From the IMG/VR virus record IMGVR_UViG_2534681703_000013: a stretch of DNA of 14,373 bases, one strand, 5' to 3'. The notes beneath the pieces were generated by a model. It searched no databases and was not told the DNA's origin. It worked only from the letters and a program-made list of their open reading frames with translations. The stretch comes from a virus (Duplodnaviria; Heunggongvirae; Uroviricota; Caudoviricetes). Both the position numbers and the translations under genes were made by a program. This document shows positions 1 through 14,373 of this stretch, one piece after another. The first letter of the stretch is position 1. Every line of letters starts with the position of its first letter.

Positions 1-938
1 GCTCATTGCGGACAAAGACCTTTGCCACTTTCTCAATATCACCCAGCGACCCGACGTTCTCCGGCTTGCCGCCCATCAACTGAAAGGGGATGCGGTGCGC
101 GTCCAGCAGGTCAGCGGCGCTGGCTTTTTTGATATTAAAAAAATCGTCCTTCGTTGCCACTTCACTGAGCGGGATAATTTTAATGCCGTCAGCTTTCCCC
201 TGCGGGGCATAGAGAAACAGATTTTTAAAGTTGTTGCGGCCTTTCGACTTAACCATGTTTTCGCGAAGCATTTCGTATATCGTTGCGGTCCTGCACGGCA
301 TCGGTGACGTACATGATATATCCGGCATGAGCGCCGTTTTCGTAATACTTGCGGCGGAACAGCGTGGCCGACTCATTCAGCCAGGCAGAGTTAAGGGCGC
401 TGAGATATTCCGGCAGGCCGTACAGCTCCTGATTAATATCCGGCTCCAGCAGGTGAAACACGGAGCCGGGCGCGAAAGGTGTCGGCTCGTTGAAGGACGG
501 CACCCACCAGTAAACATCCTCCTCCACGCCACGGCGGGTATATTTTGCCGGTGAGGTTTCCAGTCTGATGACCTTACCGGTGGTGCTGTAACGCTTTTCC
601 AGAAACGCATTACCGAACACCAGAAAATCCAGCACAAAGCGGCTGAAATCCTGCTGGGAAAGCCACGGATGCGGGATAAATGTTGAGGCCAGAATATTAC
701 GTTTGACGTAAATCGGTGAGCTGTGATGCACGGCAGCACGCAGGCTTTTTGCCAGACCGGTAAAGCTGACCGGCGGCTCATACCATCTGCCGTTACTGAT
801 GCACTCGACGTAATCCAGAATGTCACGGCGGTCGAGTACCGGCACCGGCTCGCCAAAGGTGAATGCCTCCATTTTCGGGGCGCTGGCGGTCATTGTTTTT
901 GCCGCAGGTTGCGGTGTTTTCCCTTTTTTCTTGCTCAT
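1..938 (-). pseudogene. Q: Portal protein gpQ, partial at window start and frame-disrupted. N-terminal 229 codons are ORF 249..938; the C-terminal part continues in another frame from about 274 to beyond position 1.
   Basis: ORF track 249..938 (MSKKKGKTPQPAAKTMTAS...) matches recalled P2 gpQ N-terminus (P2 gpQ about 344 aa from memory). My translation of the minus strand 1..274 in a second frame gives an open, protein-like continuation (YEMLRENMVKSKGRNNFKNLFLYAPQGKADGIKIIPLSEVATKDDFFNIKKASAADLLDAHRIPFQLMGGKPENVGSLGDIEKVAKVFVRNE...). Start ATG is at 936-938 and shares one base with the P stop (TGATG). Confidence 0.8.
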
Positions 939-2714
939 CAGTAAAACTCCAGAATGGTGGATGTCAGCGGGGTGCTGATACCGGCGGTGAGTGGCTCATT
1001 TAACAGAGCGTGCATGGTCGCCCAGGCGAGGTCGGCGTGGCTGGCTTCCTCGCTGCGGCTGGCCTCATAGGTGGCGCTGCGTCCGCTGCTGGTCATGGTC
1101 TTGCGGATAGCCATAAACGAGCTGGTGATGTCGGTGGCGCTGACGTCATATTCCAGACAGCCACGGCGGATAACGTCTTTTGCCTTGAGCACCATTGCGG
1201 TTTTCATTTCCGGCGTGTAGCGGATATCGCGCGCGGCGGGATAGAACGAGCGCACGAGCTGGAACACGCCGACACCGAGGCCGGTGGCATCAATACCGAT
1301 GTATTCAACGTTATATTTTTCGGTGAGTTTGCGGATGGATTCTGCCTGGGTGGCAAAGTCCATGCCTTTCCACTGGTGACGCTCAAGTATTCTGAATTTG
1401 CCACCGGCCACCACCGGCGGTGCCAGCACCACGCATCCGGCGCTGTCGCCACGGTGTGACGGGTCGTAACCAATCCAGACCGGGCGGGAGCCGAACGGAT
1501 TGGTGGCAAACGGCGCATAGTCTTCCCATTCTTCCAGCGTGTCGACCATGCAGCGTTGCAGCTCCTCGAACGGGAACACCGACGCCTTGTCGTCAACAAA
1601 TTCACACATGAACAGGTTTTTAAAATCGTCGGCGCTGTTTTCACGTTTGAGCTGCTCAATGTCGAACAGTGTGCAGCCACCTTTCAGGGCGTCCTCAATG
1701 GTGACAATCTGCCGCCACTGGCCGTCCGCACAGAGAAGCCCACCGGCAAGGGCGTTATGACTGACGTCGATTTCCACGCGTTCGGCGGCGCTGGCGCGTC
1801 CCCGGTTAAACAGTTCACCTGACCAGAACGGATAGGCGTCGTGCGCCAGCGTGGACGGGGTGGAGAAATAGGTCGAGCGCAGGTGACTCTGTGAGGCCAT
1901 ACCTGATGCCACCTTACGCAGTACCTGAAAATTCGGGATCCAGAAAATCTCGTCGACGTACAGGTCACCGTTATGGCTCTGTGCGGTGTTGGAGTTGGTG
2001 CCGAGAAAAATCAGTTTTGCGCCGTTATTGCCCAGGACAATCGGGTCACCGGTCAGGTCAACGTCAACCAGCCGGGCAAAGGCGATGATGTATTCGCGGA
2101 ACACATACGCCTGCGTTTTACTGGCCGACAGAAAAATCTGGTTATGACCGGTTTTCAGGGCGCGCAGCAGCGCCTCGCGGGAAAAATAAAACGTTGCGCC
2201 AATCTGGCGGGATTTCAGGATATCGCGGATGCGGTGCTCAAGCCCGGCGCGATACCAGTGCAACTGATAGTCGAAAGACTGCTCAAAGAAAATCTGCTCC
2301 AGCTTTTCGATGGCCTCGTCACTGAAAAAATTCTTTTTCGGTTTGCGACGCCCGCCTTTGTTGCGGTTAGCGACGTTCGGATTAAGGTCTGCCTCGTTGC
2401 CGGTCTGACTGTAACGGTTGACCCGTGCCAGTCGTTCAATCTGGCGTCCGAGCAGGTCAATTTCCTTGAAGTCACCGCCGGTTTTCTGCGGTTTGATGAT
2501 GAGCTGGGTCAGCCGCGCTTCCAGACTCATTTCGACACGGCTGATGGGGGCAACGCTGTCCCAGCCGTCGCGCTGTTTCCAGCTCTGCACCGTCGGGCGT
2601 TTCATCTGCAACATGGCGGCGATCCTGCGGCACGGAAAATCCCTGCCCAGTACCGAGCAGCGCCGCCTGACGACGCGGGTCGTGTAAAAGAGTGGTGTCT
2701 GTGGTGATGGTCAT
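938..2714 (-). CDS. P: Terminase large (ATPase) subunit gpP. The 558-codon ORF 938..2614 is intact, but the likely true N-terminus (ATG at 2712-2714, GAGGT Shine-Dalgarno) is in a different frame, implying a 1-bp indel near 2624-2625.
   Basis: ORF track 938..2614 (558 aa) matches recalled P2 gpP. Frame of ORF 2472..2744 reads MTITTDTTLLHDPRRQAALLGTGQGFSVPQ and then the P frame reads IAAMLQMKRPTVQSW, together a helix-turn-helix-like N-terminus. Spliced length about 591 aa versus about 590 recalled for P2. Confidence 0.85.
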
Positions 2715-2887
2715 GAATACCTCGCCGTGATGAATACACGGCAAGGCTACTGAGTCGCGTCCCGCGATTCGCTAAGGTGCTGTTGTGTCAGTGATAAGCC
2801 ATCCGGGACTGATGGCGGAGGATGCGCATCGTCGGGAAACTGATGCCGACATGTGACTCCTCTAATCACTATTCAGGACTCCTGACA
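2715..2887. promoter_or_regulatory. Divergent late-promoter region between P (leftward) and O (rightward). Contains an imperfect dyad TGT-N12-CCA at 2784..2801 resembling the TGT-N12-ACA activator element of P2 late promoters.
   Basis: 173-bp gap between divergent start codons. Dyad tgtGTCAGTGATAAGcca read directly; its centre lies about 78 nt upstream of the P start codon. Role by analogy to Ogr-dependent P2 late promoters (established knowledge); exact -10 and +1 not determined. Confidence 0.45.
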
Positions 2888-3742
2888 ATGGCAAAAAAAG
2901 TCTCAAAATTCTTTCGTATCGGCGTTGAGGGTGACACCTGTGACGGGCGTGTCATCAGTGCGCAGGATATTCAGGAAATGGCCGAAACCTTTGACCCGCG
3001 TGTCTATGGTTGCCGCATTAACCTGGAACATCTGCGCGGCATCCTGCCTGACGGTATTTTTAAGCGTTATGGCGATGTGGCCGAACTGAAGGCCGAAAAG
3101 ATTGACGATGATTCGGCGCTGAAAGGCAAATGGGCGCTGTTTGCGAAAATCACCCCGACCGATGACCTTATCGCGATGAACAAGGCCGCGCAGAAGGTCT
3201 ACACCTCAATGGAAATTCAGCCGAACTTTGCCAACACCGGCAAATGTTATCTGGTGGGGCTGGCCGTCACCGATGACCCGGCAAGCCTCGGCACGGAATA
3301 CCTGGAATTCTGCCGCACGGCAAAACACAACCCCCTGAACCGCTTCAAATTAAGCCCTGAAAACCTGATTTCAGTGGCAACGCCTGTTGAGCTGGAATTT
3401 GAAGACCTGCCTGAAACCGTGTTCACCGCCCTGACTGAAAAGGTGAAATCCATTTTTGGCCGCAAACAGGCCAGCGATGACGCCCGCCTGAATGACGTGC
3501 ATGAAGCGGTGACCGCTGTTGCTGAACATGTGCAGGAAAAACTGAGTGCCACTGAGCAGCGCCTCGCTGAGATGGAAAACGCCTTTTCCGCACTTAAGCA
3601 GGAGGTGACTGACAGGGCGGATGAAACCAGCCAGGCATTCACCCGCCTGAAAAACAGTCTCGACCACACCGAAAGTCTGACCCAGCAGCGCCGCAGCAAG
3701 GCCACCGGCGGTGGCGGTGACGCCCTGATGACGAACTGCTGA
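2888..3742 (+). CDS. O: Capsid scaffolding protein gpO (284 aa). ORF-track start at 2822 is an upstream extension; ATG at 2888 gives MAKKVSKFFRIGVEGDT.
   Basis: ORF track 2822..3742; internal start gives 284 aa, the length recalled for P2 gpO, with a recognisable N-terminus. Confidence 0.9.
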   Translation: MAKKVSKFFRIGVEGDTCDGRVISAQDIQEMAETFDPRVYGCRINLEHLRGILPDGIFKRYGDVAELKAEKIDDDSALKGKWALFAKITPTDDLIAMNKAAQKVYTSMEIQPNFANTGKCYLVGLAVTDDPASLGTEYLEFCRTAKHNPLNRFKLSPENLISVATPVELEFEDLPETVFTALTEKVKSIFGRKQASDDARLNDVHEAVTAVAEHVQEKLSATEQRLAEMENAFSALKQEVTDRADETSQAFTRLKNSLDHTESLTQQRRSKATGGGGDALMTNC

Positions 3743-3796
3743 CCGGCGTCAGTCCAGGAAAACCTTCACGATTAACCCTTAATTTCAGGAATAACT

Positions 3797-4870
3797 ATGC
3801 GCCAGGAAACCCGCTTTAAATTTAATGCCTACCTGTCCCGTGTTGCCGAACTGAACGGCATCGACGCCGGTGATGTGTCGAAAAAATTCACCGTTGAACC
3901 GTCGGTCACCCAGACCCTGATGAACACCATGCAGGAGTCCTCTGACTTTCTGACCCGCATCAACATTGTGCCGGTCAGCGAAATGAAAGGGGAAAAAATT
4001 GGTATTGGTGTCACCGGCTCCATCGCCAGCACCACCGACACCGCCGGTGGCACCGAGCGTCAGCCGAAGGACTTCTCGAAGCTGGCGTCAAACAAGTACG
4101 AATGCGACCAGATTAACTTCGATTTTTATATCCGCTACAAAACGCTTGACCTGTGGGCGCGTTATCAGGATTTCCAGCTCCGTATCCGTAACGCCATTAT
4201 CAAACGCCAGTCCCTTGATTTAATCATGGCCGGTTTTAACGGCGTGAGGCGTGCCGAAACCTCTGACCGCAGCAGTAATCCGATGCTGCAGGATGTGGCG
4301 GTCGGCTGGCTGCAGAAATACCGCAATGAAGCCCCGGCGCGCGTGATGAGCAAGGTCACTGACGAGGAAGGGCACACCACCTCTGAGGTTATCCGCGTGG
4401 GTAAGGGCGGTGATTATGCCAGCCTTGATGCACTGGTGATGGATGCGACCAACAACCTGATTGAGCCGTGGTATCAGGAAGACCCTGACCTTGTGGTGAT
4501 TGTGGGGCGTCAGCTACTGGCGGACAAGTATTTCCCCATCGTCAACAAGGAGCAGGACAACAGCGAAATGCTGGCCGCTGACGTCATCATCAGCCAGAAA
4601 CGCATCGGTAACCTGCCGGCGGTACGCGTCCCGTACTTCCCGGCGGATGCGATGCTCATCACGAAGCTGGAAAACCTGTCCATCTACTACATGGATGACA
4701 GCCATCGCCGCGTGATTGAGGAAAACCCGAAACTCGACCGCGTGGAGAACTACGAGTCAATGAACATTGATTACGTGGTGGAAGACTACGCCGCCGGTTG
4801 TCTGGTGGAAAAAATTAAGGTCGGTGACTTCTCCACACCGACTAAAGTGACCGCAGAGCCGGGAGCGTAA
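3797..4870 (+). CDS. N: Major capsid protein gpN (357 aa).
   Basis: ORF track 3797..4870; sequence and length match recalled P2 gpN; AGGA ribosome-binding site upstream. Confidence 0.93.
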   Translation: MRQETRFKFNAYLSRVAELNGIDAGDVSKKFTVEPSVTQTLMNTMQESSDFLTRINIVPVSEMKGEKIGIGVTGSIASTTDTAGGTERQPKDFSKLASNKYECDQINFDFYIRYKTLDLWARYQDFQLRIRNAIIKRQSLDLIMAGFNGVRRAETSDRSSNPMLQDVAVGWLQKYRNEAPARVMSKVTDEEGHTTSEVIRVGKGGDYASLDALVMDATNNLIEPWYQEDPDLVVIVGRQLLADKYFPIVNKEQDNSEMLAADVIISQKRIGNLPAVRVPYFPADAMLITKLENLSIYYMDDSHRRVIEENPKLDRVENYESMNIDYVVEDYAAGCLVEKIKVGDFSTPTKVTAEPGA

Positions 4871-4873
4871 CCG

Positions 4874-5617
4874 ATGACGAGTCCCGCACAGCGCCACATG
4901 ATGCGGGTCTCGGCAGCGATGACCGCGCAGCGGGACGCCGCCCCGCTGCGACATGCAACTGTCTATGAGCAGATGCTGGTCAAGCTGGCCGCAGACCAGC
5001 GCACACTGAAAGCGATTTATTCAAAAGAGCTGAAGGCCGCGAAAAAACGCGAACTGCTGCCGTTCTGGTTGCCGTGGGTGAACGGCGTGCTGGAGCAGGG
5101 CAAAGGTGCACAGGATGACATTCTGATGACGGTCATGCTGTGGCGTCTGGATACCGGCGATATTGCCGGTGCGCTGGAGATTGCCCGTTATGCCCTGAAG
5201 TACGGTCTGACCATGCCGGGTAAACACCGCCGCACCCCGCCGTACATGTTCACCGAGGAGGTGGCGCTCGCGGCCATGCGCGCCCACGCTGCCGGTGAGT
5301 CTGTGGATACCCGCCTGCTGACGGAGACCCTTGCACTGACCGCCACGGCAGACATGCCTGATGAAGTGCGCGCAAAGCTGCACAAAATCACCGGTCTGTT
5401 TCTGCGTGACGCTGGTGATGCCGCCGGTGCGCTGGCGCACCTGCAACGTGCGACACAGCTCGACTGTCAGGCAGGCGTCAAAAAAGAGATTGAACGACTG
5501 GAGCGGGAGCTGAAACCGAAGCCGGAGCCGCAGCCAAAAGCGGCCACCCGCGCCCCGCGTAAGACCCGGAGCGTGACACCGGCAAAACGTGGACGCCCGA
5601 AAAAGAAAGCCAGTTAA
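4874..5617 (+). CDS. M: Terminase small/endonuclease subunit gpM (247 aa), with a basic KR-rich C-terminus.
   Basis: ORF track 4874..5617; length and sequence match recalled P2 gpM; starts 4 nt after the N stop. Confidence 0.9.
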   Translation: MTSPAQRHMMRVSAAMTAQRDAAPLRHATVYEQMLVKLAADQRTLKAIYSKELKAAKKRELLPFWLPWVNGVLEQGKGAQDDILMTVMLWRLDTGDIAGALEIARYALKYGLTMPGKHRRTPPYMFTEEVALAAMRAHAAGESVDTRLLTETLALTATADMPDEVRAKLHKITGLFLRDAGDAAGALAHLQRATQLDCQAGVKKEIERLERELKPKPEPQPKAATRAPRKTRSVTPAKRGRPKKKAS

Positions 5618-5716
5618 CAACCGAATGCGCCCCGCGCCAGGGCGGCACGCCGGTCAGTGAGGGTGAATCACCTGACACTGCACCGGCGTCCACCGCCCGA
5701 CTTTTCAGAGGTAGTC

Positions 5717-6226
5717 ATGATGACGCTGATTATTCCGCGAAAGGAGGCTCCCGTGTCCGGTGAGGGTACGGTGGTCATCCCGCAACCGGCAGGCGACGAG
5801 CCGGTGATTAAAAACACGTTCTTTTTTCCCGATATCGACCCGAAGCGCGTCCGGGAACGTATGCGCCTTGAGCAGACCGTCGCCCCCGCCCGTCTGCGTG
5901 AGGCCATCAAGTCAGGCATGGCGGAGACGAATGCGGAGCTGTACGAGTACCGCGAACAGAAAATTGCCGCCGGTTTTACGCGTCTGGCGGACGTCCCGGC
6001 GGACGACATCGACGGTGAAAGCATCAAAGTTTTTTACTACGAGCGCGCCGTGTGTGCGATGGCGACCGCGTCGCTTTATGAGCGTTATCGCGGCGTGGAT
6101 GCCAGTGCGAAAGGCGACAAGAAGGCTGACAGCATTGACAGCACCATTGATGAGCTGTGGCGGGATATGCGCTGGGCGGTGGCGCGTATCCAGGACAAGC
6201 CGCGCTGCATCGTGAGTCAAATCTGA
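5717..6226 (+). CDS. L: Head completion/stabilisation protein gpL (169 aa). ORF-track start at 5657 is an upstream extension; ATG at 5717 (MMTLIIPRKEAP) follows a GAGGT Shine-Dalgarno.
   Basis: ORF track 5657..6226; internal ATG gives 169 aa, the P2 gpL length; stop overlaps the X start (TGATG). Confidence 0.88.
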   Translation: MMTLIIPRKEAPVSGEGTVVIPQPAGDEPVIKNTFFFPDIDPKRVRERMRLEQTVAPARLREAIKSGMAETNAELYEYREQKIAAGFTRLADVPADDIDGESIKVFYYERAVCAMATASLYERYRGVDASAKGDKKADSIDSTIDELWRDMRWAVARIQDKPRCIVSQI

Positions 6227-6429
6227 TGAAGACCTTTGCGCTACAGGGCGACACGCTCGACGCCATTTGTGTCCGGTATTACGGGCGCACTGAGGGCGTG
6301 GTTGAGACCGTGCTCGCCGCAAATCCGGGACTGGCTGAACTGGGCGCGGTGCTGCCACACGGCACCGCCGTCGAACTGCCCGACGTTCAGACCGCGCCCG
6401 TGGCTGAAACTGTCAATCTGTGGGAGTAA
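6226..6429 (+). CDS. X: Tail protein gpX (67 aa, LysM-like).
   Basis: ORF track 6157..6429 contains MKTFALQGDTLDAICVRYYGRTEG... starting at 6226; 67 aa matches P2 gpX. Confidence 0.88.
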   Translation: MKTFALQGDTLDAICVRYYGRTEGVVETVLAANPGLAELGAVLPHGTAVELPDVQTAPVAETVNLWE

Positions 6430-6432
6430 CGC

Positions 6433-6714
6433 ATGACAGCAGAAGAAAAAAGCGTCCTGTCGCTTTTCATGATTGGGGTGCTGATTGTTGTCGGCAAGGT
6501 GCTTGCCGGTGGTGAACCCATCACCCCGCGTCTGTTTATCGGGCGCATGTTGCTCGGTGGTTTTGTCTCGATGGTTGCCGGTGTTGTTCTGGTGCAGTTT
6601 CCTGACCTGTCACTGCCTGCGGTGTGCGGCATCGGCTCCATGCTGGGTATCGCCGGTTATCAGGTGATTGAGATTGCCATTCAGCGCCGCTTTAAGGGCA
6701 GGGGGAAACCGTAA
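6433..6714 (+). CDS. Y: Holin gpY (93 aa).
   Basis: ORF track 6433..6714; hydrophobic segments plus charged C-terminus (RRFKGRGKP); length matches P2 gpY. Confidence 0.9.
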   Translation: MTAEEKSVLSLFMIGVLIVVGKVLAGGEPITPRLFIGRMLLGGFVSMVAGVVLVQFPDLSLPAVCGIGSMLGIAGYQVIEIAIQRRFKGRGKP

Positions 6715-7211
6715 TGCCGGTAATTAACACGCATCAGAATATCGCCGCCTTTCTCGACATGCTGGCCGTGTCCGAAGGGACGGCGAATCATCCGCTGACG
6801 AAAAACCGGGGCTATGACGTGATAGTCACCGGACTGGACGGAAAGCCGGAAATTTTCACCGACTACAGTGACCACCCGTTCGCGCATGGCCGACCGGCGA
6901 AGGTGTTTAACCGTCGCGGTGAAAAATCCACGGCCTCCGGTCGCTATCAGCAGCTTTACCTGTTCTGGCCGCACTACCGCAAACAGCTTGCCCTGCCGGA
7001 TTTCAGTCCGTTGTCACAGGACAGACTCGCCATTCAGTTGATCCGCGAACGCGGTGCACTGGATGACATCCGGGCGGGACGCATTGAGCGCGCCATTTCA
7101 CGCTGTCGCAATATCTGGGCGTCCCTGCCGGGTGCCGGTTACGGTCAGCGTGAGCATTCACTGGAAAAACTGGTCACCGTCTGGCGTACTGCTGGCGGCG
7201 TACCGGCTTAA
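6714..7211 (+). CDS. K: Endolysin gpK (165 aa).
   Basis: ORF track 6714..7211; matches recalled P2 gpK; start overlaps the Y stop (TAATG). Confidence 0.9.
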   Translation: MPVINTHQNIAAFLDMLAVSEGTANHPLTKNRGYDVIVTGLDGKPEIFTDYSDHPFAHGRPAKVFNRRGEKSTASGRYQQLYLFWPHYRKQLALPDFSPLSQDRLAIQLIRERGALDDIRAGRIERAISRCRNIWASLPGAGYGQREHSLEKLVTVWRTAGGVPA

Positions 7212-7225
7212 ACGGAGTAAACACC

Positions 7226-7651
7226 ATGAAGAAATTATCCCTTTCACTGATGCTGAACGTGTCGCTGGCGCTGATGTTGGCACTGTCCCTGATTTACCCG
7301 CAGAGCGTAGCCGTCAATTTTGTCGCTGCCTGGGCGATTCTGGCGACGGTTATCTGTGTGGTTGCCGGTGGTGTCGGCGTGTATGCCACTGAGTATGTGC
7401 TGGAACGCTACGGGCGGGAGCTGCCGCCGGAATCGCTGGCCGTGAAGATTGTCACGGCGCTGTTTTTGCAGCCGGTGCCGTGGCGCAGACGGGCGGCGGC
7501 TCTGGTGGTGATGGTGGTGACGTTTATCTCGCTGGTCGCTGCCGGGTGGATTTTTACTGCGCTGATTTACCTCGTGGCGTCGCTGTTTTTCCGGCTGATA
7601 CGTACGGCCTGCCGTCAGCGTTTTGAGGGGCGGGAACCATGTCAAAACTGA
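7226..7651 (+). CDS. lysA: LysA, membrane protein affecting lysis timing (141 aa).
   Basis: ORF track 7226..7651; multiple hydrophobic helices; position and length as in P2. Confidence 0.85.
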   Translation: MKKLSLSLMLNVSLALMLALSLIYPQSVAVNFVAAWAILATVICVVAGGVGVYATEYVLERYGRELPPESLAVKIVTALFLQPVPWRRRAAALVVMVVTFISLVAAGWIFTALIYLVASLFFRLIRTACRQRFEGREPCQN

Positions 7652-8082
7652 TGATTGTGCTGGTTGTGTTGTTATCACTGGCGGTGGCGGGGCTGTTTCT
7701 GGCGAAGCATGAAAACGCCAGCCTGCGCGCCTCGCTGGACAGGGCGAACAACGTCGCCAGCGGGCAGCAGACGACCATCACCGTGCTGAAAAATCAGCTT
7801 CATGTTGCCCTCACCAGGGCAGACAAAAACGAGCTGGCGCAGGTGGCTCTGCGTCAGGAACTGGAGAACGCCGCGAAGCGTGAAGCACAGCGCGAGAAAA
7901 CCATCACGAGGTTACTTAATGAAAACGAAGATTTTCGCCGCTGGTACGGCGCTGACCTGCCTGATGCTGTGCGCCGGTTGCACCAGCGCCCCGCCTGCAC
8001 CGACGCCAGTGATTGTCCACAACGCCTGCCCGAAAGTGAGTCTTTGCCCGATGCCGGGCAGCGACCCGGAGACGAACGGTGA
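7639..8082 (+). CDS. lysB: LysB, Rz-like inner-membrane spanin (147 aa) with N-terminal transmembrane segment and coiled-coil region.
   Basis: ORF track 7639..8082; N-terminal hydrophobic stretch MSKLMIVLVVLLSLAVAGLFLA; position after lysA. Confidence 0.85.
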   Translation: MSKLMIVLVVLLSLAVAGLFLAKHENASLRASLDRANNVASGQQTTITVLKNQLHVALTRADKNELAQVALRQELENAAKREAQREKTITRLLNENEDFRRWYGADLPDAVRRLHQRPACTDASDCPQRLPESESLPDAGQRPGDER

Positions 8083-8209
8083 TTTAAGTGCCGATATCCG
8101 GCAGCTTGAGAACGCGCTGGCGCGCTGTGCCAGCCAGGTAAAAATGATTAAATACTGTCAGGACGAAAACGATGCTCAAACCCGACAGCCTGCGCAGGGC
8201 GCTGACTGA
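7919..8209 (+). CDS. lysC: LysC, Rz1-like outer-membrane lipoprotein spanin (96 aa), nested in the +1 frame of lysB and extending past it.
   Basis: Within ORF 7802..8209, ATG at 7919 gives MKTKIFAAGTALTCLMLCAGC with a lipobox-like LCAGC; proline-rich after the Cys; 96 aa as recalled for P2 LysC. Confidence 0.8.
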   Translation: MKTKIFAAGTALTCLMLCAGCTSAPPAPTPVIVHNACPKVSLCPMPGSDPETNGDLSADIRQLENALARCASQVKMIKYCQDENDAQTRQPAQGAD

Positions 8210-8639
8210 TGCCGTCACGGTGCTGAAAACTAACCCCGATATGCTGCGGATATTCGTGGATAACGGGAGTATTGCCTCCACGCTGGCGGCGTCGTTGTCA
8301 TTCGAAAAGCGTTACACGCTCAATGTCATTGTGACCGACTTTACCGGTGATTTTGACCTGCTCATTGTGCCAGTGCTGGCGTGGCTGCGGGAAAATCAGC
8401 CCGACATCATGACCACTGACGAAGGTCAGAAAAAGGGCTTCACGTTTTATGCAGACATCAACAATGACAGCAGCTTTGATATCAGTATCAGCCTGATGCT
8501 GACCGAGCGCACGCTGGTCAGTGAGGTGGACGGCGCACTGCATGTGAAGAATATCCCGGAACCTCCGCCGCCGGAGCCGGTCACCCGCCCGGTGGAGCTT
8601 TATATCAATGGCGAACTGGTGAGCAAGTGGGATGAATGA
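8172..8639 (+). CDS. R: Tail completion protein gpR (155 aa).
   Basis: ORF track 8172..8639; matches recalled P2 gpR length and sequence. Confidence 0.88.
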   Translation: MLKPDSLRRALTDAVTVLKTNPDMLRIFVDNGSIASTLAASLSFEKRYTLNVIVTDFTGDFDLLIVPVLAWLRENQPDIMTTDEGQKKGFTFYADINNDSSFDISISLMLTERTLVSEVDGALHVKNIPEPPPPEPVTRPVELYINGELVSKWDE

Positions 8640-9084
8640 GTTTAAGCGTTTTGAAGACCGGCTGACCGGACTTATTGAATCGCTGTCACCGTCAGGGCGT
8701 CGGCGACTGAGCGCCGAACTGGCGAAACGTCTGCGGCAGAGTCAGCAGCGCCGGGTGATGGCACAGAAAGCCCCGGACGGCACACCCTACGCACCACGCC
8801 AGCAGCAGAGCGCCAGAAAAAAGACCGGTCGCGTTAAGCGAAAAATGTTTGCGAAACTTATCACCAGTCGTTTTTTGCATATCCGCGCCAGCCCGGAGCA
8901 GGCATCAATGGAGTTTTACGGCGGGAAGTCGCCGAAAATCGCCAGTGTGCATCAGTTCGGTCTGTCGGAAGAAAACCGGAAAGACGGTAAGAAAATTGAT
9001 TATCCGGCGCGTCCTCTGCTCGGCTTTACCGGTGAGGATGTGCAGATGATTGAAGAGATTATCCTGGCTCACCTCGACCGTTAG
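8632..9084 (+). CDS. S: Tail completion protein gpS (150 aa).
   Basis: ORF track 8632..9084; start overlaps the R end by 8 nt; length matches P2 gpS. Confidence 0.88.
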   Translation: MNEFKRFEDRLTGLIESLSPSGRRRLSAELAKRLRQSQQRRVMAQKAPDGTPYAPRQQQSARKKTGRVKRKMFAKLITSRFLHIRASPEQASMEFYGGKSPKIASVHQFGLSEENRKDGKKIDYPARPLLGFTGEDVQMIEEIILAHLDR

Positions 9085-9116
9085 TTGTGCCATTCCCGAC
9101 ACCTCATCGTCACATT

Positions 9117-9138
9117 GCCGCCGGTATGACCCGGCGGC
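9117..9138 (+). other. Perfect hairpin GCCGCCGG-tatgac-CCGGCGGC (8-bp stem, 6-nt loop) in the S-V intergenic region; possible operon-boundary terminator or 5'-UTR structure of the V transcript.
   Basis: Read directly from sequence; no U-tract follows, so intrinsic-terminator status is uncertain. Confidence 0.35.
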
Positions 9139-9150
9139 ATCCTTCCCGTT

Positions 9151-9786
9151 ATGAACACTCTCGCAAATATTCAGGAACTCGCGCGCGCACTGCGCAACAT
9201 GATCCGCACCGGCATTATCGTCGAAACCGACCTTAACGCCGGTCGCTGCCGTGTGCAGACTGGCGGCATGTGCACCGACTGGCTTCAGTGGCTGACCCAT
9301 CGTGCCGGGCGTTCGTGCACATGGTGGGCACCTTCCGTGGGGGAACAGGTGCTGATTCTGGCCGTGGGCGGTGAACTCGACACGGCGTTCGTTCTGCCGG
9401 GGATTTATTCCGGCGATAACCCTGCGCCGTCTGCGTCGGCGGATGCACTGCATATCCGTTTCCCTGACGGGGCGGTGATTGAGTATGAACCCGAAACCAG
9501 TGCACTCACGGTAAGCGGAATTAAAACGGCCAGCGTAACGGCTTCTGATTCTGTTACTGCCACGGTGCCGGTGGTCATGGTGAAAGCGTTAACCCGCATC
9601 ACCCTGGACACACCGGAGGTGGTCTGCACCAACAGGCTGATTACCGGCACGCTGGAAGTGCAGAAGGGCGGGACGATGCGCGGCAACATTGAACACACCG
9701 GCGGTGAACTCTCATCAAACGGTAAGGTACTGCACACCCATAAACACCCCGGCGACAGCGGCGGCACAACCGGGAGTCCTTTATGA
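9151..9786 (+). CDS. V: Baseplate spike/assembly protein gpV (211 aa).
   Basis: ORF track 9151..9786; matches recalled P2 gpV. Confidence 0.9.
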   Translation: MNTLANIQELARALRNMIRTGIIVETDLNAGRCRVQTGGMCTDWLQWLTHRAGRSCTWWAPSVGEQVLILAVGGELDTAFVLPGIYSGDNPAPSASADALHIRFPDGAVIEYEPETSALTVSGIKTASVTASDSVTATVPVVMVKALTRITLDTPEVVCTNRLITGTLEVQKGGTMRGNIEHTGGELSSNGKVLHTHKHPGDSGGTTGSPL

Positions 9787-10130
9787 CAGCGCGTTATCTC
9801 GGAATGAATCGCAGTGATGGCCTGACGGTCACTGACCTTGAGCATATCAGCCAGAGTATCGGCGATATCCTGCGCACGCCGGTCGGCTCACGGGTGATGC
9901 GTCGTGATTACGGCTCGTTGCTGGCGTCAATGATTGACCAGCCGCAGACCCCGGCGCTTGAGTTGCAGATTAAGGTCGCCTGTTACATGGCCGTGCTGAA
10001 ATGGGAACCCCGCGTCACCCTGTCATCCGTCACCACGGCGCGCAGTTTTGACGGGCGAATGACGGTCACGTTAACCGGTCAGCACAACGACACCGGCCAG
10101 CCACTTTCGTTAACCATCCCTGTGAGTTGA
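9783..10130 (+). CDS. W: Baseplate wedge protein gpW (115 aa).
   Basis: ORF track 9783..10130; ATGA overlap with V; length matches P2 gpW. Confidence 0.9.
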   Translation: MTARYLGMNRSDGLTVTDLEHISQSIGDILRTPVGSRVMRRDYGSLLASMIDQPQTPALELQIKVACYMAVLKWEPRVTLSSVTTARSFDGRMTVTLTGQHNDTGQPLSLTIPVS

Positions 10131-10134
10131 AACC

Positions 10135-11043
10135 ATGCCGATTATCGACCTGAACCAGCTACCCGCACCGGATGTGGTCGAGGAGCTGGACTTTGAAACC
10201 ATTCTTGCCGAACGCAAGGCGACACTGATTTCCCTTTACCCGGAAGACCAGCAGGAGGCGGTCGCCCGTACCCTGACGCTGGAATCCGAGCCTCTCGTCA
10301 AACTGCTGGAGGAAAACGCTTATCGTGAGCTTATCTGGCGTCAGCGTGTGAATGAGGCCGCACGGGCGGTGATGCTGGCCTGTGCCGCCGGTAATGACCT
10401 TGATGTGATTGGTGCCAATTACAACACCACGCGCCTGATTATCGCCCCGGCAGATGATTCGACTATCCCGCCGACACCGGCAGTGATGGAGTCTGACACC
10501 GATTATCGTCTGCGTATTCAGCAGGCGTTTGAGGGCTTAAGCGTCGCCGGGTCGGTGGGAGCCTATCAGTATCATGGTCGCAGTGCCGACGGGCGTGTCG
10601 CGGATATCTCTGTCACCAGTCCGTCTCCGGCCTGCGTCACTATCTCCGTGCTGTCACGTGAAAATAACGGCGTCGCATCCGAAGACCTGCTGGCCGTGGT
10701 GCGTAACGCCCTTAATGGCGAGGACGTCAGGCCGGTGGCCGACCGCGTGACCGTGCAGTCTGCCGCCATTGTTGAATATCAGATAAACGCCACGCTTTAC
10801 CTTTACCCAGGTCCCGAAAGCGAACCCATCCGCGCTGCTGCCGTGAAAAAACTGGAAGCGTACATCACGGCACAGCACCGGCTGGGGCGCGACATCCGTC
10901 TGTCTGCCATTTATGCCGCTTTGCATGTGGAAGGCGTGCAGCGTGTCGAGCTGGCCGCACCACTGGCCGACATCGTGCTCAACAGTACGCAGGCGTCTTT
11001 CTGTACTGAATACCGCGTCGTGACGGGAGGCTCGGATGAGTGA
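10135..11043 (+). CDS. J: Baseplate assembly protein gpJ (302 aa).
   Basis: ORF track 10135..11043; length matches P2 gpJ. Confidence 0.9.
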   Translation: MPIIDLNQLPAPDVVEELDFETILAERKATLISLYPEDQQEAVARTLTLESEPLVKLLEENAYRELIWRQRVNEAARAVMLACAAGNDLDVIGANYNTTRLIIAPADDSTIPPTPAVMESDTDYRLRIQQAFEGLSVAGSVGAYQYHGRSADGRVADISVTSPSPACVTISVLSRENNGVASEDLLAVVRNALNGEDVRPVADRVTVQSAAIVEYQINATLYLYPGPESEPIRAAAVKKLEAYITAQHRLGRDIRLSAIYAALHVEGVQRVELAAPLADIVLNSTQASFCTEYRVVTGGSDE

Positions 11044-11647
11044 TTCGCGACTGCTGCCGACCGGCTCATCACCGCTTGAAGTCGCCGCCGCAAAAGCCTG
11101 TGCGGAAATTGAAAAAACGCCGGTCAGTATTCGTGAGCTGTGGAACCCGGATACCTGTCCGGCAAATCTGCTGCCGTGGCTGGCGTGGTCATTTTCGGTT
11201 GACCGCTGGGATGATAAGTGGCCGGAAGCGACAAAACGCGCTGTTATCCGCGATGCGTATTTCATTCACTGCCATAAGGGCACTATAGGTGCAATCCGCC
11301 GTGTGGTGGAGCCGCTCGGCTATCTGATTGAGGTGAGGGAGTGGTGGCAGCTCAACGAGGAGCCGGGGACGTTCCGCATCGTTGTTGGCGTGCTTGAGCA
11401 GGGTATTACCGAGGAAATGTATCAGGAGCTGGAGCGTCTCGTTGCTGATGCAAAACCTGCAAGCCGCCATCTGACAGGACTGGCTATCAGTTTAAGTACA
11501 ACCGGTAACATTTTTGCCGGTGCAGGATGCTATCACGGCGACGCCCTGACGGTTTATCCCTACACCCCGGAGGCCATTATTGTCGGAGGGGATTATTTCC
11601 CGGCCTCGGCCATTCATTTAATTGATAACCTGAGAGTAAACGCATGA
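11036..11647 (+). CDS. I: Baseplate/tail-fibre attachment protein gpI (203 aa; longer than the about 176 aa I recall for P2).
   Basis: ORF track 11036..11647; start overlaps the J end, stop overlaps the H start (ATGA). Confidence 0.85.
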   Translation: MSDSRLLPTGSSPLEVAAAKACAEIEKTPVSIRELWNPDTCPANLLPWLAWSFSVDRWDDKWPEATKRAVIRDAYFIHCHKGTIGAIRRVVEPLGYLIEVREWWQLNEEPGTFRIVVGVLEQGITEEMYQELERLVADAKPASRHLTGLAISLSTTGNIFAGAGCYHGDALTVYPYTPEAIIVGGDYFPASAIHLIDNLRVNA

Positions 11648-12972
11648 CAGTGAAATACTACGCCATTCTGACTAATCAGGGCGCAGCACGGCTGGCTAAC
11701 GCGACGATGCTCGGCAGTAAGCTGAATCTGACGCAAATGGCCGTTGGTGATGCGAATGGTGTCTTGCCGACACCAGACCCGGCACAGACAAAACTGATTA
11801 ACCAGAAACGCATCGCGCCGCTGAATCTTCTGAGTGTTGATCCGAACAACCAGAGCCAGATTATTGCGGAGCAAATCATCCCTGAGAACGAGGGCGGATT
11901 CTGGATCCGTGAGATTGGGCTTTATGATGATGAAGGCGTACTCATTGCGGTGGCGAACTGCCCGGAAACGTACAAACCGCAGTTGCAGGAAGGCAGTGGT
12001 CGTACCCAGACTATCCGCATGATTCTGGTTGTCACGAATACCGAAGCCATCACGCTGAAAATCGACCCGTCGGTGGTACTGGCGACCCGTAAATACGTGG
12101 ATGATAAAGTCCTGGAATTAAAGCTGTATGTGGATGACCAGATGAGAAACCACATTGCCGCACAGGATCCTCATACCCAGTATGCACAGAAACATAATCC
12201 GACATTTACCGGAGAACCAAAAGCGCCGACGCCTGCCGCAGGAAATAACACCACGCGGATTGCGACCACTGCGTTTGTACAGGCCGCTATTACCGCTCTG
12301 ATTAACGGTGCGCCTGACACGCTGGACACACTGAAAGAAATTGCCGCAGCTATCAACAATGACCCGAAATTCAGTACCACCATTAACAATGCGCTGTCAG
12401 GTAAGCAGCCACTGGATGAGACGCTGACTCATTTGAGTGGAAAGGATGTTGCCGGTCTTCTCGCATACCTTGGTTTGGGAGAAGGCTCTGCATTACCTGT
12501 TGGTGTGCCTGTTCCATGGCCTTCAGCCACACCGCCAACAGGCTGGCTGAAATGCAACGGTGCAGCTTTTTCTGCTGAAGAATACCCGGAACTGGCAAAG
12601 GCTTACCCGACAAATAAATTGCCTGATTTACGCGGTGAATTTATTCGTGGCTGGGATGACGGGCGTGGTATTGATGCTGTACGTGCCTTGCTAAGTCTTC
12701 AGAATGGAGGAGTGGAATCACACACCCACCAAGGGCAGCTCTTCAGAGTTAGTGATTATCGTACAAAAGAAATACCAGCATCAGAAGTTATGGGAAGAGG
12801 ATATATTGCAAGCCTGACGCCGGGTGCTGATAGCCCACTTGATTTTGATGATTATTCTGTATCTTCTAATCCAAATGGATATTTTGTCGGGAATCAGAGA
12901 ACAACAGCATATGGGATAAATGAAACCCGTCCACGGAATATTGCATTTAACTATATCGTGAGGGCTGCATAA
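11644..12972 (+). CDS. H: Tail fibre protein gpH (442 aa): constant N-terminal part followed by a variable C-terminal receptor-binding part containing a phage tail-collar-like motif (VGVPVPWPSATPPTGWLKCNGAAFSAEEYPELAKAYP...PDLRGEFIRGWDDGRGID).
   Basis: ORF track 11644..12972; position after I; collar-like motif recognised by eye; much shorter than recalled P2 gpH (about 669 aa), so mosaic. Confidence 0.85.
   Translation: MTVKYYAILTNQGAARLANATMLGSKLNLTQMAVGDANGVLPTPDPAQTKLINQKRIAPLNLLSVDPNNQSQIIAEQIIPENEGGFWIREIGLYDDEGVLIAVANCPETYKPQLQEGSGRTQTIRMILVVTNTEAITLKIDPSVVLATRKYVDDKVLELKLYVDDQMRNHIAAQDPHTQYAQKHNPTFTGEPKAPTPAAGNNTTRIATTAFVQAAITALINGAPDTLDTLKEIAAAINNDPKFSTTINNALSGKQPLDETLTHLSGKDVAGLLAYLGLGEGSALPVGVPVPWPSATPPTGWLKCNGAAFSAEEYPELAKAYPTNKLPDLRGEFIRGWDDGRGIDAVRALLSLQNGGVESHTHQGQLFRVSDYRTKEIPASEVMGRGYIASLTPGADSPLDFDDYSVSSNPNGYFVGNQRTTAYGINETRPRNIAFNYIVRAA
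12458..12483. other. Candidate site-specific recombination (inversion crossover) site: TTCTCGCATACC-TT-GGTTTGGGAGAA, 12-bp imperfect inverted half-sites around a 2-bp core, Hin/Gin/Cin/Pin type.
   Basis: Read directly. The half-sites match 10/12 as inverted repeats and fit the TTxTCxxAAACC half-site pattern of hix/gix sites. It lies inside H, encoding LLAYLGLGE, just upstream of the collar domain (constant/variable boundary). Confidence 0.6.
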
Positions 12973-13574
12973 TGGATAACGCTGTATTAAATAGCGAGTT
13001 TATTGCTACAAAGGCGGGGAATATTACCGTCTATAACTATGATGGCGAAACACGGGAATATATTTCCACATCAACTGAATATCTTGCTGTGGGTGTCGGT
13101 ATTCCGGCATTTTCCTGTCTGGAGGCACCTGGCATATACAAGGCTGGTTATGCAATTTGTCGCTCTGTGGATTTAAATTCATGGGAATATGTGCCAGACC
13201 ATCGCGGTGAAATCGTCTATAACACCGAAACGGGAGACGCCAAAGAAATCACAGCTCCGGGTGATTACCCCGAAAATACAACCACTATCGCCCCATTAAC
13301 GCCATACGATAAATGGGATGGTGAGAAATGGGTGACCGATACTGAGGCACAGCATTGCGCCGCAGTAGACGCGGCAGAAGCACAGCGCCAGTCACTGATT
13401 GATGCTGCAATGGCTTCCATCAGTCTGATTCAGCTGAAATTACAGGCCGGGCGGAGGCTGACGCAGGCAGAAACCACCCGCCTTAACGCCGTGCTGGATT
13501 ACATTGACACGGTGACGGCAACAGATACCAGCACCGCGCCGGATGTCATCTGGCCTGAACTGCCGGAGGTGTAG
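12972..13574 (+). CDS. G: Tail fibre assembly protein gpG (Tfa, 200 aa).
   Basis: ORF track 12972..13574; TAATG overlap with H; conserved Tfa C-terminal motif DTSTAPDVIWPELPEV. Confidence 0.85.
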   Translation: MDNAVLNSEFIATKAGNITVYNYDGETREYISTSTEYLAVGVGIPAFSCLEAPGIYKAGYAICRSVDLNSWEYVPDHRGEIVYNTETGDAKEITAPGDYPENTTTIAPLTPYDKWDGEKWVTDTEAQHCAAVDAAEAQRQSLIDAAMASISLIQLKLQAGRRLTQAETTRLNAVLDYIDTVTATDTSTAPDVIWPELPEV

Positions 13575-13989
13575 GCCATTCAATATCGGGGGCTGTTGAT
13601 GTATCAACACGCATCAGCAGCACACGGTATTTCTTCCATTGGGTGAGAGTTGAAGTTTCTTCATCAGTTGCGATACCAGCATCAACAGCATCCTGACGCC
13701 AGGATATTTCACTGTCAGCTTTTGCACGAAATGTGGCTTTCATGTTTTCTGCATCTGATATTTTCTGTTCTGGTGAAAGCGGCGGCTCATCAACCCATGC
13801 AAGGGTCCCTGAAACCATTCCCAGCATTTTTCCTGTTGGCTTATTTCCCCCATTAAATCTGACAGCATCCTCATCGCTGATTTCAATACCATCCTGCGGC
13901 CATGTCCCCTCCTTGATATAACTTTCATATAGCGCTGCGTTGTAGATTGCATTTTCGGACGGGCTGTAAACACTTTTAACTTTATTCAT
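13546..13989 (-). CDS. Alternative tail fibre assembly protein (Tfa', 147 aa) on the opposite strand, converging on G and overlapping it by 29 bp.
   Basis: ORF track 13546..13989; C-terminal motif VDTSTAPDIEWPTPP parallels that of gpG; GGGAGA Shine-Dalgarno 7-8 nt upstream of the ATG. Confidence 0.8.
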   Translation of the reverse strand: MNKVKSVYSPSENAIYNAALYESYIKEGTWPQDGIEISDEDAVRFNGGNKPTGKMLGMVSGTLAWVDEPPLSPEQKISDAENMKATFRAKADSEISWRQDAVDAGIATDEETSTLTQWKKYRVLLMRVDTSTAPDIEWPTPPAVQAR

Positions 13990-13993
13990 TCTG

Positions 13994-14373
13994 TTATCTC
14001 CCTTTCGCTATATAGCAAAGATTAAACCCACCGACGCCTGACATACGGGCTGTAAAACCCGTTCTTGAAGTACCAGTTGAGTTAACTCCATAAGCAGGCA
14101 TGGTTGTTGGAGAAAGCAGAGACTCCTGGATATCTGCCATTGTCAGTGTAATTGATTCGACCCGCGCGGGGAAAGGTAGCGGGAAAACAACATTCGTCCC
14201 TGTCTGTCCAACGGGGAAACCGAAAATACCCCATTGTCGTAATTACCCCTTCCGGCCCCTTACTCCATCCAGATTTAGGAATCGGCCAGTCTGCTGCTCC
14301 AGAGTGCCCCGTTGTAAAACTACTCATATCTGGTACTTGCCCGGTATCCGTTCCGACGTTCCTCGTTGCCGCT
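13994..14373 (-). CDS. Alternative tail-fibre C-terminal exon (Sv'-like), partial: open from beyond the window end. Two frames are open; the likely real C-terminus (...FPVGQTGTNVVFPLPFPARVESITLTMADIQESLLSPTTMPAYGVNSTGTSRTGFTARMSGVGGFNLCYIAKGR) ends at 13994, 4 nt before the Tfa' start.
   Basis: ORF track 14082..14327 is in a frame with no stop up to position 14373 (AATRNVGTDTGQVPDMSSFTTGHSGAADWPIPKSGW...). A second frame is open 13994..14242 and ends immediately upstream of Tfa'. Implies a 1-bp indel between 14085 and 14242. Confidence 0.55.

Follow-up and report, generated by a model that had tools for sequence, protein, structure and literature searches.

An extra base in the silent exon of a putative invertible tail-fibre segment on a P2-like prophage contig of Escherichia coli

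Introduction

In the Din-family segments (Mu G/Gin, P1 C/Cin, e14 P/Pin) and in the two-variant P2-like locus of EPEC E2348/69 (PMC4272514), a shared constant part of the tail fibre is combined with two opposed exons. Invertible tail-fibre loci of this type are known in P2-like E. coli prophages, with both orientations present together in clonal cultures (PMC4272514). This kind of cassette is not new, and the cassette described here is itself annotated in intact form in dozens of RefSeq genomes.

The locus considered here lies at the right end of a 14,373-nucleotide viral record (IMGVR_UViG_2534681703_000013), the whole of which is referred to below as the window. Like the Din-family systems, it has an own Tfa chaperone for each exon, short inverted sites and representatives of both orientations in nature; in its relatives, a recombinase gene with Resolvase and HTH_7 domains is adjacent. 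Unlike the systems of Mu, P1 and e14, its backbone is P2-like; unlike all of the Din-family systems, one of its exons is frameshifted in this record, and only one orientation could give a working fibre.

Two complete genomes provide the closest references. E. coli HCM-28C-2 (NZ_AP038246.1; gp53-like protein WP_464350780.1, Tfa WP_001544307.1, recombinase WP_000905107.1) is 99.8% identical over window positions 13540-14373 and has the same order of H, G, Tfa' and inverted exon. In strain 1008S13 (NZ_CP147053.1; fibre WP_341853488.1, 480 aa), the same exon directly continues constant H (LGLGE/AATRNVG, the slash marking the boundary). Both differ from the window in lacking the C at 14238, which leaves the fibre tip uninterrupted, and in having the right crossover site and the invertase gene. 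Strain MS 69-1 has the same cassette twice, once in its chromosome and once on another record of 64 kb (NZ_CP146678.1, 64,057 bp), which could be an excised or plasmid-like copy of the phage or an assembly duplicate.

Results

Genomic context of the window

Over the 5,730 bases compared (window 8644-14373), 0 differences were found between the window and contig AQEY01000031.1 of the E. coli draft genome GCA_000355295.1 (locus L011). As this contig is also 14,373 bp long, the window is the entire draft contig. Positions 1-12484 or 1-13593 are 96.6-97.9% identical to Escherichia phage pro483, to "Escherichia phage P2" (strain T22 record) and to Salmonella phage MET_P1_103_31. The genes follow the P2-like late order (Q, P / O N M L X Y K ... 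V W J I H G), and the left end of the window falls inside the portal gene Q. Judged by this collinear gene order and high identity, the window is the late region of a P2-like (Peduovirus-type) prophage. In the spacer between O and N, at window position 3748, GTCA is missing relative to pro483 and strain 10034940-2, a length difference of 4 nt; the absence is not private to the contig, and match lengths suggest that some relatives are without GTCA as well.

The genes at the right end comprise:

11644-12972, plus strand: tail-fibre gene H, 442 aa (Pfam Phage_tail_fib 1.6e-62, Collar 3.5e-15)
12972-13574, plus strand: tail-fibre assembly gene G (Tfa), paired with the expressed exon (Pfam Caudo_TAP 3.9e-32)
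13546-13989, minus strand: inverted tail-fibre assembly gene Tfa', paired with the silent exon (Pfam Caudo_TAP 9.8e-33)

Codons 1-280 of H (to 12483) form the constant part and are followed by a "collar"-type variable C-terminal exon. The identical 442-aa H protein occurs on approximately 21 public contigs, and the exact Tfa' protein on 764 contigs, within a cluster of 230 members. The H stop and the G start overlap in TAATG at 12970-12974 on the plus strand, and the convergent genes G and Tfa' overlap by 29 nt at their 3' ends, on opposite strands (13546-13574).

Crossover sites, recombinase and orientations

The constant part of H is accompanied by two opposed C-terminal exons, each with its own assembly gene: the collar exon with G on the plus strand, and a gp53-like exon with Tfa' on the minus strand. 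Two short inverted sites delimit this arrangement, one of them inside the fibre gene, and the right site could be located in HCM-28C-2:

12458-12484, no strand assigned: left crossover site, inside H, TTCTCGCATACCTTGGTTTGGGAGAAG (inverted-repeat search of HCM-28C-2 and the same sequence in the window)
14372-14373, no strand assigned: first 2 nt of the right crossover site, at the contig end (position 4833 of the HCM-28C-2 locus aligns to window 14373; the right arm is 4832-4858 of that locus)

The pair in HCM-28C-2 (2919-2945 versus 4832-4858 of the locus) is 27 nt long and 81% complementary, and no other inverted pair of 14 nt or more was found there. The 27-bp sites may be similar to the gix, cix and pix consensus. 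The nucleotide homology of pro483 and vB_EcoM-640R3 to the window ends at 12484 and 12483, respectively. Because these breaks coincide exactly with the left crossover site, this site probably also forms a mosaic boundary, at which different variable fibre modules have been placed on a common constant part.

In the relatives, a gene with Resolvase and HTH_7 domains directly follows the exon and is itself followed by the tail sheath gene; the window ends before that position. This recombinase gene (197 aa, PF00239 and PF02796) was found in six drafts with an identical H (L004-L009), where it starts 28-31 nt past the annotated exon ORF, and the same 197-aa gene is annotated as "recombinase family protein" in HCM-28C-2. 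The segment has the orientation of the window in HCM-28C-2 and in L004-L009, and is flipped, with the gp53-like exon fused to constant H, in strains 144 and 1008S13, so that both orientations occur across the relatives.

From these features we infer a Gin/Cin/Pin-type invertible tail-fibre segment, for which an invertase mechanism is predicted in this strain, the invertase gene lying beyond the contig. A segment of approximately 1.9 kb would be flipped by a serine invertase between two 27-bp inverted sites, one in H (12458-12484) and the other starting at the contig end. As assembled, the segment would let the phage produce a collar-tipped H alongside chaperone G; once inverted, it would supply the gp53-like exon to H codons 1-280, with translation of Tfa' starting 4 nt further on. 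Two further drafts with the same H protein, L010 and L012, likewise end within approximately 15 nt of the right crossover site. If the culture contained both orientations of the segment, as described for clonal cultures in PMC4272514, assemblers may well have broken off there, which would explain where these contigs end.

The silent exon and its two reading frames

The exon has no start codon of its own and would be readable only after inversion:

13994-14373, minus strand: silent alternative C-terminal exon of H with a gp53-like tip, including the stop at 13994-13996 (homology after removing 14238; Gp53-like_C)

The original prediction had noted two open minus-strand frames at 14085-14242, and translation confirms that this is the exact stretch over which both are open. 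The first, frame A, reads AATRNVG...GVITTMGYFRF...VSAFSNNHACLWS, ends in ...NNHACLWS and is closed by the TAA at 14082-14084. The second, frame B, reads after a stop LRQWGIFGFPVGQ...CYIAKGR and is open from 14242 down to the TAA at 13994-13996. With the ATG of Tfa' at 13989-13987, frame B ends 4 nt before this start codon, as had been proposed, and the homologues all end in ...CYIAKGR at the same distance of 4 nt from tfa. The stop of frame A at 14082 had also been placed correctly; its gap to Tfa' is 92 nt, not 93 nt.

The window contains 95 ORFs of 50 aa or more, and no start codon in frame B would yield a product of that size. The second open frame by itself is not beyond chance; it is homology that lifts frame B above it. 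We consider frame B meaningful because it corresponds to the C-terminus of annotated gp53-like tail-fibre proteins and because the repaired exon (14238 removed, 125 aa) passes the Pfam profile PF21882 (Gp53-like_C), with 41.8 bits (gathering cut-off 24.9 bits), an E-value of 1.6e-10 and a match to profile positions 3-84 of 84. The suggestion that frame B is the more fibre-like and encodes the true C-terminus is supported by these results. As deposited, the domain is split over two frames: a Pfam search of frame A with its out-of-frame tail included gave no match, and the recorded gene call for the frame B fragment has a "weak" match only.

Both candidate C-termini were searched, as the original prediction had advised. 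The outcome was not one that would have refuted that prediction, namely homologues with the ending ...NNHACLWS or a frame B end without homologues. The frame B end ...CYIAKGR is matched by homologues. For the out-of-frame tail (...NNHACLWS, 51-52 residues) no relative was found among 5.8 billion protein clusters, and an exact look-up of the corresponding 81-aa ORF (14082-14327) showed it to be absent from a collection of 15 billion sequences and from the recorded gene calls. With a tail lacking homologues and an unrecorded ORF, frame A was rejected as a genuine C-terminus.

Compared with the final 125 residues of the 480-aa H' of 1008S13, the repaired exon has a single difference (T for I); compared with the corresponding stretch of the HCM-28C-2 protein it again has a single one (V for A). 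The intact 480-aa fibre of 1008S13 reads ...DVAGLLAYLGLGE/AATRNVGTDTGQVPDM...GVITQWGIFGF...CYIAKGR, with Tfa' 4 nt downstream, and its constant part ends in the same LGLGE (LGLGE/AATRNVG) that marks the boundary in the H of the window (LGLGE/G). By this intact fusion the exon is shown to be an alternative C-terminus of H, which in the window would be joined after E280. In one of the drafts (L004) no gene is called at the exon and a nonsense mutation was suspected; this was rejected, as the translation is intact and the ORF is merely uncalled.

Among 50,697 deposited phage genomes, a DNA search with Tfa' and the exon (window 13590-14373) gave no nucleotide match. Protein homologues from deposited phages share 31-34% identity with the repaired exon and cover its residues 1-125 in a single frame. 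As there is no DNA match and protein identity is only 31-34%, no named phage can serve as a close reference. The module of Tfa' plus exon (13590-14373) was found in prophages only, in approximately 54 of 5,426 complete E. coli genomes.

The extra base at 14238

The original prediction of a 1-bp indel in the inverted tail-fibre exon was right in substance: the homologues read through in one frame, and relative to them the exon carries a single indel. The positions concerned are:

14238, minus strand: extra base, C on the plus strand and G on the coding strand (the only indel versus relatives)
14082-14084, minus strand: premature stop in the shifted frame, after 51 out-of-frame residues (translation)
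14229-14232, minus strand: C4 run, not the indel site (CCCC in relatives too)

On the coding strand, relatives read ATT ACA CAA TGG GGT ATT TTC (I T Q W G I F) and the window reads ATT ACG ACA ATG GGG TAT TTT; the extra base shifts ACA CAA TGG GGT ATT (T Q W G I) to ACG ACA ATG GGG TAT (T T M G Y). The context is not a homopolymer, being TTGT[C]GTAA on the plus strand and AC[G]ACA on the coding strand, and the position of the insertion is unambiguous because the inserted G stands between C and A.

Comparison with intact cassettes of related prophages, which had also been proposed, gave a single-frame exon without a C at 14238. Among complete E. coli genomes the closest match is the locus of HCM-28C-2; aligned with window 13540-14373, it shows a single substitution and a single gap, the latter opposite the extra C. 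In each of the further independent loci, a viral contig (L003) and the draft contigs with an identical 442-aa H (L004-L010 and L012), the gap at 14238 is the sole indel versus the window in the exon region. Strain 144 (L002) is also without the C and has homopolymer indels of its own. In its record (NZ_CP023364.1, 2867-5669), the flipped cassette carries three CDS flagged "frameshifted". Two of the gaps in its alignment with the window fall in runs of C, at window positions 14246 and 14256, which suggests that errors of assembly have entered this complete genome.

Should the deposited sequence be right, the flipped fusion would have 280 + 96 = 376 aa instead of 405 aa. After 45 correct exon residues the fibre would run through 51 nonsense residues to a stop lying 92 nt short of Tfa'. 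Missing from it would be 80 native residues, among them the greater part of the Gp53-like_C receptor-binding domain, and the tight coupling to Tfa' would be lost as well, from which we infer a loss of function of the flipped fibre. The assembled orientation would be unaffected, with G and the collar-tipped H intact.

Distribution of the insertion

To establish how widespread the insertion is, a 68-mer around 14238 was searched in 5,426 complete E. coli genomes. It is present in 37 of them, and all 37 are without the insertion. The insertion allele was likewise not found in viral contigs (1 match, intact) or in metagenome contigs (4 of 4 matches intact), and among the GTDB representative genomes neither the intact nor the insertion allele was matched. 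Across the collections searched, the extra base is thereby shown to be private to AQEY01000031.1.

Other private insertions on the contig

The exon is not the only part of the contig with private insertions. Relative to all relatives, the portal gene Q has an extra T at 276 (gcatttcgTatatcg), which cuts its reading frame to a 229-aa ORF (249-938); that product is found on AQEY01000031.1 only, and the insertion is present in 0 of 1,113 complete E. coli genomes matching the portal stretch. The 5' part of the terminase ATPase gene P contains three insertions within 32 nt (C at 2624, C at 2646 and CG at 2654-2655; net +4), by which the gene is split into ORFs 938-2614 and 2472-2744. These were found in 0 of 1,583 matching complete genomes, the best of which reaches 94.4% identity. 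A private substitution at 2621 adjoins them.

Counted against small panels of relatives that cover 11.7 kb of the contig, the private changes amount to 5 insertion events (14238 included), 0 deletions and at most 29 substitutions. Three of the 5 insertion events lie outside homopolymers and 2 of the 5 within 300 nt of a contig end.

Discussion

Two readings of the exon are highly improbable on the comparison with relatives. The original prediction had located the change in the C4 run at 14229-14232 (G4 on the coding strand), where slippage would have given ...GVITTMGIFGF.... Deleting one C from this run does join the two frames, and yields an open frame of the right length, ...GVITTMGIFGFPVGQ...AKGR; the site is nevertheless wrong, as the relatives keep CCCC unchanged and differ at 14238. 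They encode QW at the junction (GVITQWGIFGF), which makes TM in the proposed junction two wrong residues, and all exact-pattern matches (ATACCCCATTGT...GTAATTACCCC) in viral and metagenome contigs retain ATACCCCATTGT with its run. A homopolymer-slippage origin is unsupported because the C4 run is kept in the relatives and the insertion lies in a non-homopolymer context, and we give it almost no chance of being correct. It is just as improbable that the two-frame layout is functional, either as a programmed +1/-1 ribosomal frameshift or with the short frame A product and its 92-nt spacer as the intended form. The two overlapping open frames speak for such a layout, and nothing else does. In homologues ranging from 99.8% DNA identity to 31% protein identity the tip is always in one frame, the frame A tail has neither homologue nor domain, and the two-frame layout, whose conservation among homologues would mark a programmed frameshift, is confined to one draft contig.

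What remains to be weighed is whether the base at 14238 is an error or a mutation. We lean towards a sequencing or assembly error of the draft as its probable source, rather than biology, because the private indel spectrum consists of insertions throughout, the events are tightly clustered, and two of them lie less than 300 nt from the contig ends. A genuine private mutation, in a decaying prophage whose silent inverted exon is not under selection and has become a pseudogene together with the portal and terminase genes, is a serious alternative to which we assign somewhat less than even chances. That three genes (Q, P and the H' exon) are each frameshifted is also a normal picture of decay, up to approximately 29 substitutions in 11.7 kb indicate real private changes in this lineage, and with three of the five events outside homopolymers the insertions do not have the classic error signature of 454 or Ion Torrent data. 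The rest of the late operon is intact at the ORF level. At least 5 private indels against at most 29 private substitutions is a high ratio, yet not an impossible one for a decaying element. The contig is listed with "2 samples with this contig"; if these were independent assemblies, the insertions would be real. Against a mutation stand the absence of any deletion among the five private events, the occurrence of three of them within 32 nt, the nearness of two to contig ends, the fragmented state of the source draft, and the fact that the insertions are unseen in 5,426 complete genomes and in other draft, viral and metagenome contigs. Were the mutation real, inversion would switch the fibre to a dead tip. 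That the extra base is not only real but selected or tolerated so as to lock the host range is very unlikely; inversion would then act as an ON/OFF switch for infectious particles and not as a choice between two receptors, and the frameshifts in the portal and terminase genes would be due to artefacts or to decay at a later stage.

Whether it proves to be an error of the draft, as we favour, or a mutation, the frameshift is a defect private to a single draft record, and in either case an ordinary one. As invertible tail-fibre cassettes of P2-like prophages are already documented, it carries little biological weight. Its value lies in annotation. Several insertions in AQEY01000031.1 are suspicious, and pseudogene or phage-viability calls based on this contig should be made with caution. 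The 81-aa ORF at 14082-14327 is spurious and not a gene; the region is a frameshifted, promoterless alternative exon of H, with ITQWGIF as its true junction.
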